Shown: positions 6,423 through 20,150 of the stretch, piece by piece
Layout: each line of letters starts with the position of its first letter
How positions within the stretch are numbered: position 1 is the stretch's first letter
From: Candidatus Hodarchaeota archaeon
GTDB taxonomy: Archaea; Asgardarchaeota; Heimdallarchaeia; Hodarchaeales; Hodarchaeaceae
Reading direction: 5' to 3'
Assembly (NCBI GenBank): GCA_016839815.1
Contig: JAEOTM010000107.1
Coordinates: 1-20,362, forward strand
Length of the DNA: 20,362 nucleotides
Notes under the pieces: generated by a model
What the model was told of the DNA's origin: nothing
Seen by the model: only the letters and a program-made list of their open reading frames with translations
Databases searched by the model: none
Program-made: the position numbers and the translations under genes

Positions 6423-6497
6423 TGGACCGGATGGGATTTGAACCCATGACCTCCTGCATGCCAAGCAGGCGCAACTACCAGGCTGTGCCACCGGCCC
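6423..6497 (-). tRNA. tRNA-Ala (anticodon GGC), intronless, CCA not encoded
   Basis: The reverse complement folds as GGGCCGG/CCGGTCC acceptor stem with the G3.U70 alanine identity pair, CCTGC-TTGGCAT-GCAGG anticodon arm, ATGGG-TTCAAAT-CCCAT T arm and discriminator A. 75 nt. Confidence 0.97.
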
Positions 6498-16373: not shown

Positions 16374-17066
16374 ATGAAAGTTTCATGCTTAGTTTCAGGT
16401 GGGAAAGACTCAATTTTCGCTTTATGGTGTGCCCTTCACCAATTTGATGTTGTTTCTCTAATCAATATCCAAACAATCTCTTCTGATAGCTTTCTTTTTC
16501 ATATCCCGAACACTAAATATGTCTCATTAATGGCTAAAATGTTAAACTTGGACTTAATTGAAGTAAAAATTAACTCCTCTGATGTAAATCAAGAAATATC
16601 AACACTAACGCAAATTTTCACTGAATCTGAAACAGAAGCGATAATTACCGGAGGAATACATTCAGAATTTCAAAGGTATAAATTCAATTTAGCCGCTCAA
16701 AAAGCTGGTGTTAGATGTTTCAATCCACTTTGGAGACTGAAACCAAAAATTCTTATGGAAGAGTTACTAAAAAACAATTTCCACGTCATTCTCGTATCAG
16801 TTTCTGCAATGGGATTTGGAAAAGATCTTCTAGGTAAGAAGCTTACACTTGAAAATTTAAATACTCTTAGAAAGTTACATCAAGTTTCAGAATTAGCATT
16901 GACTGGAGAAGGAGGAGAGTATGAATCATTTGTTTTGGATGCTCCTTTTTTCCCCTCCAAGATTTTGGTAAATGAAGCAAGAATACATTGGAACGAATTT
17001 CGGGAGGAGGGTTTTTACGAGATACTTGATGCAGAACTAGTACCGAAAATCCAAAATAAACACTAA
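16374..17066 (+). CDS. dph6: Diphthine--ammonia ligase (MJ0570-type PP-loop ATPase)
   Basis: SGGKDS, SFLFH.PN, GGIHSEFQ, PLW and GEGGEYESFVLDAPFF. Confidence 0.9.
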   Translation: MKVSCLVSGGKDSIFALWCALHQFDVVSLINIQTISSDSFLFHIPNTKYVSLMAKMLNLDLIEVKINSSDVNQEISTLTQIFTESETEAIITGGIHSEFQRYKFNLAAQKAGVRCFNPLWRLKPKILMEELLKNNFHVILVSVSAMGFGKDLLGKKLTLENLNTLRKLHQVSELALTGEGGEYESFVLDAPFFPSKILVNEARIHWNEFREEGFYEILDAELVPKIQNKH

Positions 17067-17917
17067 ATAGGTTCGTAAGTTACTGAAAGCATTTCTAGCG
17101 CTAGAAGACCATCATTGTCATGATCAAGTAGTGAAACAAATACAAAATTGGGTTCTCCAGGTGTCGTCAACTCTGAGGAATTTAATTGAAACACTTCGCT
17201 TGGAAAAGATGTAACTTCAAACTTTTCAAGTGTAAAAACATACTGACTTCTATTAATATCATTGATTATGAAGAATAATCCACTGGAAGAGGCTACTGAG
17301 AACTCTAATCGCAGTTCTAAATCCAAGCTTCCATTATTAATCACGGAGAAGTTCATTGTTAATCCCGCTTGGGTGAAAATTAAGGAGGAAGTTAATGAAA
17401 TCAGAGAAAGTGGTCCATAGGTATCTCCAATCGTAAGGATATCAGAACGAAATGTCTCTGCAGATCTTGCACTTGTTTTTCCTTGTGGATACACTGTTAC
17501 ATCTATGTATATAGTATCATTTCCAGGTATTAACTCACTTTGATCGATAGTGTTGTCACATGCGAGAGAAATTGTTTCAATTCCTAAACCAGATAAAAGT
17601 ATTTTTGTTTGATCCATATACCAACCGAGAATAGGAGTACGATTGAAATAAAGAAGAGAAAAAGCATCGGGGGAGATCTCAATATTTGTACGTTCCATAT
17701 TTTGTAAAGTAATATCAAATCTATCTACATAGATGTCATTATCAGTAGTTTCGAAAGAAGATAAGCCAATGACTTCAACCCCTAATGGATCGGGAGTATT
17801 AAGGGTACCAAACATCACTAATGCTACTCCTAACCCAGCAACCACGACAAGTCCAATTAAAAGTACAGTAGCAATTACAGGACTAATACCTCTCTTCTTC
17901 TTCAACATATTCATCAT
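17063..17917 (-). CDS. Archaeal type IV pilin-like protein with class III signal peptide
   Basis: KKKRG|ISPVIATVLLIGLVVVAG PibD/FlaK-type cleavage motif and hydrophobic helix, followed by a beta-rich acidic body. Likely start at ATG 17917/17914/17908 rather than TTG 18031. Confidence 0.85.
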   Translation of the reverse strand: MMNMLKKKRGISPVIATVLLIGLVVVAGLGVALVMFGTLNTPDPLGVEVIGLSSFETTDNDIYVDRFDITLQNMERTNIEISPDAFSLLYFNRTPILGWYMDQTKILLSGLGIETISLACDNTIDQSELIPGNDTIYIDVTVYPQGKTSARSAETFRSDILTIGDTYGPLSLISLTSSLIFTQAGLTMNFSVINNGSLDLELRLEFSVASSSGLFFIINDINRSQYVFTLEKFEVTSFPSEVFQLNSSELTTPGEPNFVFVSLLDHDNDGLLALEMLSVTYEPI

Positions 17918-18166
17918 ATTTTCGTCTCTCACTGCTTTTTTCATATTTAGGTCAAAATTAAATTTGATAGTGGTGTTAGGATTGCAAATTCTAGGTAAAG
18001 AAATATCGTTTTTAATATGGTTATTGTCCAAGTCTTCTCTTTTTTATCTTTCCTAACACACGAAAAATCGCTGTCTTTAGAATAACTTTCGATTTCGTTG
18101 GTTTGATATGATTCTTAATCATTTTCAGAATAATCTTAGTTTTCGTCTATTTTTCTTATTGAAGGT

Positions 18167-18190
18167 AAAAAAATTGAACCGGAACTTCAA
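18167..18190 (-). terminator. Short hairpin plus T7 tract, candidate terminator
   Basis: The minus strand reads TTGAA-GTTCCGG-TTCAA-TTTTTTT, downstream of the 612-aa gene and the structured RNA candidate. Confidence 0.5.
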
Positions 18191-18206
18191 CAAAGGTATC
18201 AGCGTA

Positions 18207-18297
18207 ATGCTTTTCTGCTAAGCCGGACGGTAATCAGCTTCATCGCAACGGGAAGGCCTCTGCTGACCGATACATTAGCAGTCTTTATTGAAAGCAT
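18207..18297 (-). ncRNA. Structured ncRNA, candidate archaeal box H/ACA guide RNA
   Basis: Minus strand: lower stem CUGCUAA/UUAGCAG, internal loop UGUAU/UCCGGC, upper stem CGGUCAGC/GCUG(AUU)ACCG, K-turn-like AGA...GCGAUGAA, and an ANA-type box (AAA) after the lower stem. Locally GC-rich. Confidence 0.5.
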
Positions 18298-18311
18298 CCT
18301 CTAGTCTTGTT

Positions 18312-20150
18312 TTACCATCGTGAAAAACCGATTCCACAAGTTTCTGATATGAGTAACAAGAATAAAGCAATTTCCTCCATTTCTTGATTTGATTCTGATG
18401 CGACAAATACAACTCCCTCTCCTTGATATAATGGCTGCATAATCAGTGAGAGAATAGCATCAAGTGCTTTTCCTAGGGTCCAGAAAGCTTCTGTTTCAAC
18501 CTGTTCTCGGACTTCTTTTTCAAAAATAAAGGTTTTAAATTTTGATGGGATTTTCTCTCTAACGAAATCACGATTGGGAGGAATAATTAAGATTGATCCT
18601 TCTTTTGGTATATTAAACCTTGAAGAAAGAGTCTTAATATTCAGTTCTACTTGAGTAAGGTATTCAACAATGCTTAACCATAAAACTCCACGCAAAGCGC
18701 TTTTATCCTGTTCATAAGGTGCGTGAAGGGCCACGGTATTTTGATGAATTTCAACGTTTCCATCAACTTTTGCGGCAATATCCTTGAGTGATCCAGCTAT
18801 ACTTTCAAGTCGCGGTGCGTAGGTAGAAATATGGCATTCAAAACGATCTAGCTTACGATATAAGCTAACCGTGATATTTGATTCACTTGATGGCACAACA
18901 TCAGCTGGTTGGAGATCAAGAGACATGGGAGACGCATCTAAAACTACAGGAATATCAGCAAAATTATACTGTAACCCACTTTCCCTTGCTTTTTGTAGTT
19001 GAGACGCAATTTCTGGACTTAATGCTTCTGAAGGAATGGGACGTTCGACAATAGGCTTCATTGGAACTGTTTTTATGGGGATTGCATCAGGTTCAGCAGC
19101 TAGCTGAATACTGGGTTTAAGAGCAGTTTTCTCAACAGGTGGAGCAGATATTGATGAGGTTGGTGTTTGGATTTCATCTTTTCCAACCACTAACTCTTGC
19201 AGCTCGGGTAGATCTGTTGTTTCTACTTCTATTGCTGGTGGGGTCAATTCCCTCATTTTATGCATTACTGGAGCAGACATGGTTACTACGATATCTTTTC
19301 CTGGTTGTATCACCGTCGATAATAATACATTATTTCTAATATAGTTATCCTCACTCGGAGGAAACATTGCCATGGACTGAGCTATCTCTTGAGCATCTGC
19401 ATTATCAATAAACTTTCGCATCTTGGCAGTGTTCGAATTCTCACCAAAAATTCTACTAAGAACATCATATACATGCTCTCCTGCATTTGCAGAAAAATAT
19501 TGTTTAAGGGGTGTCTCTAAACCAAAAATCAGTATATTATCATTCTCTTCGACTCCTGGTATAGGTGTAAATGACAAAACTCGTGAAGTTTTGGATGCTT
19601 CAATGATAGATAATAAATCGCTTGTATCATTCGGGTTTATAAAAACTAATCTGGATACTACGCTTTCTACTCCATATCGTAAATCATGTGCAAATGCTGT
19701 AAGTAAAACGAGAGCTGATAGCATTCCCTCTGCAGTTCTAGGAATGACATATATAGAATCCGCGGGTGAAGTCAATAGTTGGTAAAAAGCGTCTAAATGC
19801 CTGTTTTGAGCATCTAATACATTTCCATCGAGGAATTGTTCTATTAGGTTTAATACTATGCCCATGGTTGGAACAACTTGACGAGCATTTTTTGCAATTG
19901 GGATCAGGACGAGTGCAACAAGATCATCAGATCTCTTAACTTGGGGAAAAAGGAATATCATACGATGATGGGCAAATCTGATGAAGTGAATTCGTTCCCC
20001 TCCCATAATCTTCTGTGAAAAAAGAGTGAGAACTTGGGTAACAGTTGCGCTAATTTTGGAGTGTTGAGATAAAAGACCTTTACCTGAGCTAAAAATTACT
20101 CTATTCTGGTGAACGACAAGGAGATCGCTAGAATCCATTTGTGTATCCAT
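18312..20150 (-). CDS. Hypothetical 612-aa protein with N-terminal longin-like domain, possibly DENN-related
   Basis: aa 8-107 show a beta-beta-alpha-beta-beta-beta-alpha pattern (LLVVHQNRVIFS...VLTLFSQKIMGGERIHFIRF..HRMIF...LVALVLI...IVLNLIEQFL). This is followed by an alpha/beta region, a P/E/T-rich linker (about aa 303-380) and a C-terminal alpha/beta region. The CDS is secure; the domain call is tentative. Confidence 0.5.
   Translation of the reverse strand: MDTQMDSSDLLVVHQNRVIFSSGKGLLSQHSKISATVTQVLTLFSQKIMGGERIHFIRFAHHRMIFLFPQVKRSDDLVALVLIPIAKNARQVVPTMGIVLNLIEQFLDGNVLDAQNRHLDAFYQLLTSPADSIYVIPRTAEGMLSALVLLTAFAHDLRYGVESVVSRLVFINPNDTSDLLSIIEASKTSRVLSFTPIPGVEENDNILIFGLETPLKQYFSANAGEHVYDVLSRIFGENSNTAKMRKFIDNADAQEIAQSMAMFPPSEDNYIRNNVLLSTVIQPGKDIVVTMSAPVMHKMRELTPPAIEVETTDLPELQELVVGKDEIQTPTSSISAPPVEKTALKPSIQLAAEPDAIPIKTVPMKPIVERPIPSEALSPEIASQLQKARESGLQYNFADIPVVLDASPMSLDLQPADVVPSSESNITVSLYRKLDRFECHISTYAPRLESIAGSLKDIAAKVDGNVEIHQNTVALHAPYEQDKSALRGVLWLSIVEYLTQVELNIKTLSSRFNIPKEGSILIIPPNRDFVREKIPSKFKTFIFEKEVREQVETEAFWTLGKALDAILSLIMQPLYQGEGVVFVASESNQEMEEIALFLLLISETCGIGFSRW

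Follow-up and report, generated by a model that had tools for sequence, protein, structure and literature searches.

Introduction

In euryarchaea, the bulge-helix-bulge (BHB) intron of the precursor of tryptophan transfer RNA (pre-tRNA-Trp) hosts a box C/D small RNA (sRNA), and circular C/D sRNAs exist. The archaeal box H/ACA sRNAs, among them the Pab and Pf sRNAs and HgcG (RF00064), are built from a lower stem of 7 base pairs (bp), a pocket of two strands, an upper stem and an apical kink-turn (K-turn) or K-loop motif of the GA/UGA type, with an A-N-A box 3' of the lower stem, and they show a two-part complementarity to ribosomal RNA (rRNA) around an unpaired U-N. In functional guides this K-motif stands 5–6 bp above the pocket, and at most one nucleotide of the upper stem is bulged (PMC2377435, PMC7991803). 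The A-N-A box of archaeal H/ACA sRNAs is expected at 14–15 nucleotides (nt) from the target uridine. Outside the guide RNAs, the signal recognition particle (SRP) RNA of Thermoproteus is permuted, BHB-processed and circular, through the action of the splicing endonuclease and RtcB (PMC4731332). The present work deals with an element in the neighbourhood of positions 18167–18297, minus strand, of a 20,362-nt stretch of DNA (hereafter the window; contig JAEOTM010000107.1 of assembly GCA_016839815.1) from a Candidatus Hodarchaeota archaeon. It is a structured RNA directly 3' of a gene for a protein of 612 amino acids (aa), and a preliminary description of the DNA had taken it for a single H/ACA-like hairpin.

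The element shares with the archaeal H/ACA sRNAs the 7-bp lower stem, the two-strand pocket, the upper stem, the apical GA/UGA motif, the A-N-A box (here at 13–14 nt) and a computed two-part rRNA complementarity around an unpaired U-N. It departs from them in that its K-motif lies 7–8 bp plus a 2–3-nt bulge above the pocket, in that, where those RNAs have a 7-nt K-loop or a regular K-turn, its apical loop counts 12–14 nt and contains an invariant CCCG, and in its setting, a BHB-flanked three-way junction without a match in Rfam. As in the pre-tRNA-Trp intron, a K-turn guide would lie within an endonuclease-excised, circularised piece, although here the host is the 3' untranslated part of a protein gene and the RNA is of the H/ACA type, with no terminal C/D boxes. 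The Thermoproteus SRP RNA is comparable as an RNA other than tRNA with ends set by a BHB motif (the processing being predicted in our case), but the element is not permuted, and circle formation would merely close a stem and is not needed to restore the fold. The predicted target falls in the same small-subunit loop, at the same or the adjacent uridine, as that of yeast snR31 and its human and plant counterparts (PMC2794176), whereas these eukaryotic guides consist of two hairpins with H and ACA boxes and lack a K-turn, and no sequence relationship is claimed. Finally, eukaryotic intron-encoded small nucleolar RNAs (snoRNAs) are also modification guides inside protein-gene transcripts from which they are released, through the spliceosome and exonuclease trimming, in contrast with the predicted release of the element by a BHB endonuclease from a 3' untranslated region.

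H/ACA guides of Asgard archaea are essentially undescribed. No Asgard H/ACA RNA and no BHB-processed H/ACA RNA was found in the open-access literature, a weak negative, as the slash in "H/ACA" may have hindered matching. BHB-excised guides are known for C/D RNAs in tRNA introns, and none was found described for the H/ACA type or for the untranslated part of a messenger. In this context, the reading we put forward, with a probability of about one half, is that the transcript of the 612-aa gene carries, in its 3' untranslated part, a small non-coding RNA (the element) that is excised at a BHB motif and acts as an H/ACA-type guide for 16S rRNA.

A conserved structured RNA behind a protein gene

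The element lies just 3' of the 612-aa gene, after its stop codon (UAA, 18314–18312, minus strand), in a host genome (G000) of 4.2 Mb that is 89.5% complete. Its GC content (41/80 in 18201–18280) exceeds that of the neighbouring 18061–18180 (33/120), both hand counts of the preliminary description being exact, and the mean of the window is 35.8%. Every structural detail of the hairpin described earlier is also present, on the minus strand and at the positions given for it. Nevertheless, the energy of the single-sequence fold is no better than that of shuffles (z = -0.09 on the minus strand and +0.68 on the plus strand). With such a z value on the minus strand a single sequence alone proves nothing; it is the comparison with relatives that proves the element.

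This comparison, which comes entirely from one Hodarchaeales genus whose members are not independent, shows the element as a single copy in 20 of the 21 species genomes, on the minus strand like the window copy; in the remaining genome, the ortholog of the 612-aa gene runs into the contig end. Seven further copies lie on metagenome contigs and make, with the 21 genomes compared, 28 copies. The position is always immediately 3' of the ortholog of the 612-aa gene. The origin in the transcript of this gene, already proposed in the preliminary description, is supported and probable. The nucleotide identity of the element ranges from 74 to 94%, against about 52–58% for the neighbouring protein in most genomes; the element is thus more conserved than expected from the divergence of the 612-aa protein (about 53% identity). 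The covariation that the preliminary description had called for was found as well, since the stems carry compensatory changes and none of 500 shuffles was as good. Across the aligned copies, 75 G-U pairs stand against a single A-C pair, which places the RNA on the minus strand, as had been claimed. Comparison at the sequence level leaves us certain that this is a conserved, structured minus-strand RNA.

The linkage does not extend to all relatives of the gene. The element is absent behind the 30–32%-identical homologs of the 612-aa gene in the sister family and behind the paralogs of this gene within the genus, and five genomes searched with laxer filters gave no extra copy. A search of the host genome for paralogs by the pattern of the apical loop returned one match, which lies within a coding frame and was dismissed as chance.

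Overall fold: a three-way junction

RNAalifold and pair counting revealed a three-way junction with a covarying closing stem, to which the hairpin contributes one arm; it is not the stand-alone hairpin that had been described. In the junction core (28 pairs), 97.4% of the cells are paired and 11 of the 28 pairs have compensatory changes, values which none of 500 shuffles reached, slid controls being 25–60% paired. The full structure including the BHB motif comprises 41 pairs in a 156-column alignment, of which 93.4% are paired and 21 show compensatory changes; again no shuffle out of 500 was as good, and slid controls were 26–52% paired.

The 5' strand of the inner BHB helix and junction closing stem (18283–18299, minus strand) contains GGA (18299–18297), GCUU (18295–18292) and the helix P1, CAAUAAAG (18290–18283), while its 3' strand (18181–18195) contains the other half of P1, CUUUGUUG (18195–18188), AAGU (18187–18184) and UCC (18183–18181). 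P1 shows compensatory changes in 6 of its 8 pairs. The third arm of the junction is a small hairpin, P4 (18201–18211, AGC, loop, GCU), which is 100% paired and in which G021 and metagenome copies have U-A in place of C-G (e.g. AGUG/CACU). An outer helix AUGCUUU/AAAGCAU, suggested in the preliminary description as able to sequester the A-N-A box, has no comparative support. A pseudoknot between the conserved tail UUCCGG and the CCGG of the pocket was also considered and rejected, the tail being made up of the inner and central BHB strands that covary with the 5' flank.

The BHB motif and the predicted excision

The closing stem extends outward to the end of the coding sequence in 170-nt folds from each genome, and the anchored comparison with pair counts on the 156-column alignment gave the same BHB layout in all genomes compared. 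On the 5' strand, the outer helix is followed by a 4-nt central strand (GRCU), a 3-nt bulge (ANN) and the inner helix (GGA...); on the 3' strand, the inner helix (...UCC) is followed by the central strand (RGYY), a 3-nt bulge and the outer helix. In the window, the outer, exon-side helix is formed by GGUAAAACAA (18316–18307), which includes the stop codon of the 612-aa gene, and UUUUUUUACC (18173–18164), with one C.U mismatch. Its first pair beside the central helix is kept in 21/21 genomes, and the next five columns are 67.5% paired in the ungapped alignment, all with compensatory changes, the helix being longer in the per-sequence folds. It overlies the last codons and the stop codon in 19 of the 21 genomes and lies about 20 nt beyond the stop codon in the other two (G016 and G001), which means that the overlap with the stop codon is not essential.

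The central helix pairs GACU (18306–18303) with GGUU (18180–18177) and is paired in all 21 genomes, in the variants GACU/GGUU, GGCU/GGCC, GACU/AGUC and GGCU/AGUC. The 5' bulge, AGA (18302–18300), and the 3' bulge, CAA (18176–18174), are the predicted cut sites; each has exactly 3 nt in 21/21 genomes, the former always as A-N-N. The inner helix GGA/UCC is likewise paired throughout, and all three of its pairs change in a compensatory way (AGA/UCU, GAA/UUC, GGU/ACC). In short, the central helix of the locus has 4 bp, each strand bulges by 3 nt just 3' of its central-helix part, and helices flank this core on both sides. The BHB of tRNA introns has its bulges in the same position relative to the helices and in the same orientation. 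Because of this shared orientation, the piece excised would be the structured RNA. The definition of the motif, its cutting by the archaeal tRNA-splicing endonuclease and the joining and circularising of the excised piece by RtcB have been described (PMC4731332). The predicted piece (18300–18175) measures 126 nt with 46.8% GC, and 118–129 nt in the relatives. By analogy with these systems, it is likely that a BHB-defined and probably circular piece is cut from the messenger.

The host genome encodes two EndA paralogs and RtcB. The tRNA-intron endonuclease domains are found in separate genes of G000, at C6:19716-19970 and C6:51075-51335 (frames of 185 and 223 aa), and this arrangement suggests a two-subunit enzyme, a kind known for relaxed BHB recognition. 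A strict genome-wide BHB scan of G000 gave 706 matches, approximately the number expected by chance, and was uninformative; it also misses the element itself, which has one mismatch and a bulged U. Its two cleanest matches, at C21:6236-6312 (plus strand) and C38:14689-14932 (minus strand), both have 15 Watson-Crick pairs out of 16 and could represent chance or additional BHB-flanked RNAs.

The H/ACA-like arm

The long arm of the junction opens with the lower stem H1, in which CUGCUAA (18281–18275) pairs with UUAGCAG (18221–18215). Pair counts show it 100% paired in the 21 genomes, the top A-U pair becoming U-A in 16 genomes and a U-A pair becoming U-G in 5. Above it, the pocket has a 5' strand UGUAU (18274–18270), which hardly varies (4 genomes have A for G and 1 has A for U), and a 3' strand UCCGGC (18227–18222), whose UCCGG is invariant in all 28 copies. 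With 7 bp in H1 and a pocket of 5 x 6 nt, both measures agree with archaeal H/ACA RNAs, where H1 has at least 7 bp and each pocket strand has 5–11 nt. The upper stem H2 joins CGGU and CAGC (18269–18262) to ACCG (18231–18228) and GCUG (18238–18235); its 3' strand (18238–18228) is interrupted by the bulge AUU (18234–18232), of 2–3 nt in all copies. Compensatory changes in H2 include CGGA/UCCG, CGAU/AUCG and CAAC/GUUG.

The apex (18261–18239) carries a K-turn- or K-loop-like motif which reads N-GA-GG (18261–18257), a variable tetranucleotide, CCCG (18252–18249) and GC-RAU-GA-N (18246–18239). Its GA (18260–18259) stands opposite GAUGA (18244–18240), and the GA, GG, CCCG, GC and AUGA are invariant in the 21 genomes and the 7 metagenome copies. 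The layout is that of a non-canonical stem with tandem G.A pairs, a 3-nt RAU and then a C stem, stacked on the Watson-Crick upper stem, and it is likely to be an L7Ae-type K-motif. Directly 3' of the lower stem lies the A-N-A box, AAA (18214–18212); most genomes keep this sequence, with AUA occurring in G012 and G010 and AGA in G009. In the fold as drawn, the run AAAA (18214–18211) starts at a distance of 13 nt from the upper stem, and opening of the closing C-G pair would make this 14 nt.

The order of the parts (H1, pocket, H2, tandem G.A with RAU bulge, A-N-A box) is what stands of the H/ACA identity proposed in the preliminary description, while the distance of the K-motif, 7–8 bp instead of 5–6, and the lack of an Rfam match do not agree with it. 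Since the spacing of the K-motif is a defining feature, the element is called here H/ACA-like and not a member of the family, and from the arrangement of its motifs a guide function of the H/ACA type appears about as probable as its absence. Genes for Cbf5 and Nop10 are present.

The same genus has a weak relative of the three-motif H/ACA RNA HgcG/Pab40 (RF00064), found at G000 C149:16165-16426 (minus strand) and at G007 C9:77252-77467 (= L101:1501-1716) with 26 bits, below the gathering score. This HgcG-like RNA is conserved between the two genomes; in its motif 1, a lower stem of 7 bp is followed by an upper stem of 6 bp with a single bulged nucleotide and by a GA...AAUGA K-loop, and AAA replaces the ACA of the family, 14 nt from H2. 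Among rRNA sites, this RNA fits best at 23S position 2543 (UUGC UA CUUCGA, 10 bp). Since the HgcG-like RNA also carries AAA, such a box is no problem in this genus; the AAA instead of ACA, raised earlier as a caveat, is thus confirmed as an observation and softened in its weight.

Other classes of K-turn RNA were considered and set aside. In a box C/D sRNA, a C box (RUGAUGA) near the 5' end and a D box (CUGA) near the 3' end form a terminal K-turn, and there are internal C'/D' boxes. The element does not fit this class, as its GAUGA follows its GA partner in the 3' direction across a closing loop, and the second CUGA is not conserved (CUGU, CUGC, CUGG). A selenocysteine insertion sequence (SECIS), the K-turn RNA of 3' untranslated regions, was dropped as well, since the orientation of AUGA and GA is reversed with respect to the eukaryotic SECIS and the frames of the gene homologs have no internal stops.

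The predicted target in 16S rRNA

As the 16S and 23S genes are not assembled in the host genome, the target search drew on two genomes of the genus that supplied one complete 23S and one complete 16S. The target formula that had been derived from the pocket, GYYGGR(UN)RURYR, has no match in either, and the 23S peptidyl-transferase site suggested with it failed to give an exact match, the nearest 23S candidates having a mismatch and 3–6 G-U pairs. When one mismatch was allowed, the best site was the loop of 16S helix 24, GAGCCGGAUUAGAUACCCGG. With the closing C-G pair open, the 3' strand of the pocket plus G18228 (GUCCGGC) is complementary to GCCGGAU, and the 5' strand plus C18269 (GUAUC) to GAUAC, of this helix-24 "790 loop". 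The match, at 16S position 726, amounts to 12 contiguous pairs (7 + 5, one of them G-U) and is the best in both rRNAs, the next-best site having 10 pairs with 3 G-U.

Two arrangements of the unpaired nucleotides were considered. The UN arrangement leaves U789-A790 (E. coli numbering) unpaired, and the UNN arrangement leaves U788-U789-A790 unpaired, with U788 in the active site. By a provisional mapping of yeast onto E. coli numbering, the equivalent of yeast U999 is U788, which is the target of the UNN model and adjoins that of the UN model. The UNN arrangement works in Pyrococcus, and the 3' guide matters more than the 5' guide (PMC2377435). Pseudouridine 999 of yeast, directed by snR31 (1056 in human and 1000 in Arabidopsis), is located in helix 24; Cm1007 follows 8 nt later, and the site of initiation factor 3 is 3 nt away (PMC2794176). 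The 3' guide of the element does not vary among the 28 copies. Between 0.04 and 0.09 chance matches of such a pattern are expected per rRNA set and per register, and taken alone the helix-24 match is only suggestive.

ARAGORN, run without its intron mode, detected only 15 tRNA genes in the 4.2 Mb of G000, where many tRNAs may contain introns or be absent from the assembly, and no target match was found in these 15. Computed complementarity makes the specific helix-24 target a tentative proposal, with the odds somewhat against it.

Mechanism and alternative explanations

The mechanism that we propose links the structural data with these predictions. Covariation shows the first step, in which the transcript folds into a long stem with the BHB at its base and the three-way junction on top. 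By comparison with tRNA introns, rRNA spacers and the permuted SRP RNA, the tRNA-splicing endonuclease would then cut both 3-nt bulges, after which RtcB would circularise the piece of about 126 nt and rejoin the messenger. The layout of the motifs suggests that the long arm would act as the guide, L7Ae binding the GA/GAUGA K-motif and Cbf5-Nop10 the 7-bp lower stem and the A-N-A box. Finally, on computed complementarity, the pocket strands would pair with the 16S 790 loop and U788 or U789 would be converted into pseudouridine. The complete scenario, that is, a guide on an excisable insert of a protein-gene transcript, freed as a circle and directed at the same helix-24 uridine as eukaryotic snoRNAs, is unlikely to hold in every part.

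Several observations weigh against the guide reading. Between the pocket and the K-motif there are 8 bp plus the 2–3-nt bulge, or 7 bp with C18269-G18228 open, outside the range of functional archaeal guides; the C stem of the K-motif is noncanonical, with one clear G-C pair and a second that would be G.G, and the loop of 12–14 nt includes a CCCG whose invariance H/ACA function does not explain. Rfam has no match to an H/ACA model, either with the whole window at the gathering score or with 18000–18450 at E values up to 10, and these settings gave only chance-level matches (STnc410 and two fly/plant C/D families). As for the target, as long as the upper stem is closed, as drawn, no rRNA site pairs without mismatch; the match was chosen among about four registers, which raises its chance probability to roughly 0.1–0.2; the changes of the 5' guide in 5 genomes (G to A, U to A) weaken the pairing; and the equivalence of yeast U999 and E. 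coli U788, which is provisional, is a weak point. The element is also restricted to one genus, a covariance model search of 62 other genomes of the class having given no copy, and no paralogs with other guide sequences were found. In addition, the outer BHB helix is ragged or weak in about one third of the genomes, and Gar1 was not found in the 89.5%-complete genome with a model that also missed that of Sulfolobus.

Some of these points would be accommodated if the element were a BHB-excised K-turn RNA other than a pseudouridine guide, its internal loop and CCCG being protein sites or tertiary contacts of a ribonucleoprotein of the genus. The junction, the BHB motif and the invariant loops would all be retained, the distance between K-motif and pocket would no longer conflict with the known H/ACA geometry (PMC2377435, PMC7991803), and a single copy per genome in one genus, with no paralog family of different pockets, would be unsurprising. 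However, it would then be a coincidence that lower stem, pocket, upper stem, GA motif and A-N-A box follow one another in this order and at these distances, and also that a conserved rRNA loop gives a 12-bp two-part match with two correctly placed unpaired nucleotides, and we regard this explanation as somewhat unlikely. Even if it were correct, the element is a well-supported new class of structured RNA, specific to one Hodarchaeales genus. The strict linkage to the 612-aa gene in all genomes, with the outer helix over the last codons and the stop codon in 19/21, could also indicate an action in cis on the messenger, whose stability, 3' end or translation termination would be set by BHB cutting and rejoining or by a K-motif protein, the excised piece being a by-product. 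Such a role is improbable, given that the outer helix is well past the stop codon in G016 and G001, that homologs in the sister family and paralogs in the genus do without the element, and that the excised interior, with loops invariant in 28 copies, is too conserved for a by-product.

The preliminary description had seen a linear single-hairpin H/ACA sRNA with an intrinsic terminator, which would make the BHB geometry incidental. The H/ACA-like hairpin is indeed real and a run of seven T follows it in G000, but neither that run nor the UUGAA/UUCAA hairpin is conserved: the T7 run is found only in G000, relatives read UUAUUUUACU, UUUACUUACC, UUGUCUUGCC and others at its position, and the region taken for the terminator belongs to the BHB motif as its 3' half, the T run itself lying in the 3' strand of the outer helix. 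Moreover, the flanks keep the 4-bp helix, the two 3-nt bulges and the compensatory inner and outer helices in 21/21 genomes, and a linear sRNA of this kind is highly improbable. The unremarkable single-sequence fold energy on both strands could suggest that the hairpin arose by chance, that the element belongs to the plus strand or that it is a short coding sequence. These options are already refuted by the comparative sequence data, as the covariation exceeds that of all 500 shuffles, the G-U pairs prevail on the minus strand (75 to 1) and there are stops in all six frames.

The host gene and its surroundings

The 612-aa protein (18315–20150, minus strand) has no match in Pfam, NCBIfam or Atlas. 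Its predicted model, with a confidence (pLDDT) of 75, suggests an N-terminal roadblock/longin-like domain and a disordered linker at residues 306–373, and it bears a weak Foldseek likeness to phosphoesterases of the DHH/RecJ/NrnA type (E 1.8e-5, TM score about 0.17). Paralogs of its N-terminal half occur in several genomes of the genus. The next gene downstream of the element (17063–18031, minus strand) encodes 322 aa with an archaellin/type IV pilin N-terminal domain (TIGR02537, E 6e-7), and elsewhere in the window positions 6423–6497 (minus strand) are a tRNA gene (Rfam tRNA, 58 bits).

Biological meaning

The element would widen, on the predicted cutting, the set of substrates of the archaeal splicing endonuclease, and it indicates that the geometry rules established for H/ACA RNAs from Thermococcales may not hold everywhere. 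If both the processing and the target hold, an archaeal modification guide would be hosted in the transcript of a protein gene, and a ribosomal pseudouridine site would be common to archaea and eukaryotes, which bears on the origin of the snoRNA system. The element would then be, in the lineage closest to eukaryotes, the archaeal counterpart of an intron-encoded snoRNA as well as of a specific eukaryotic modification site.

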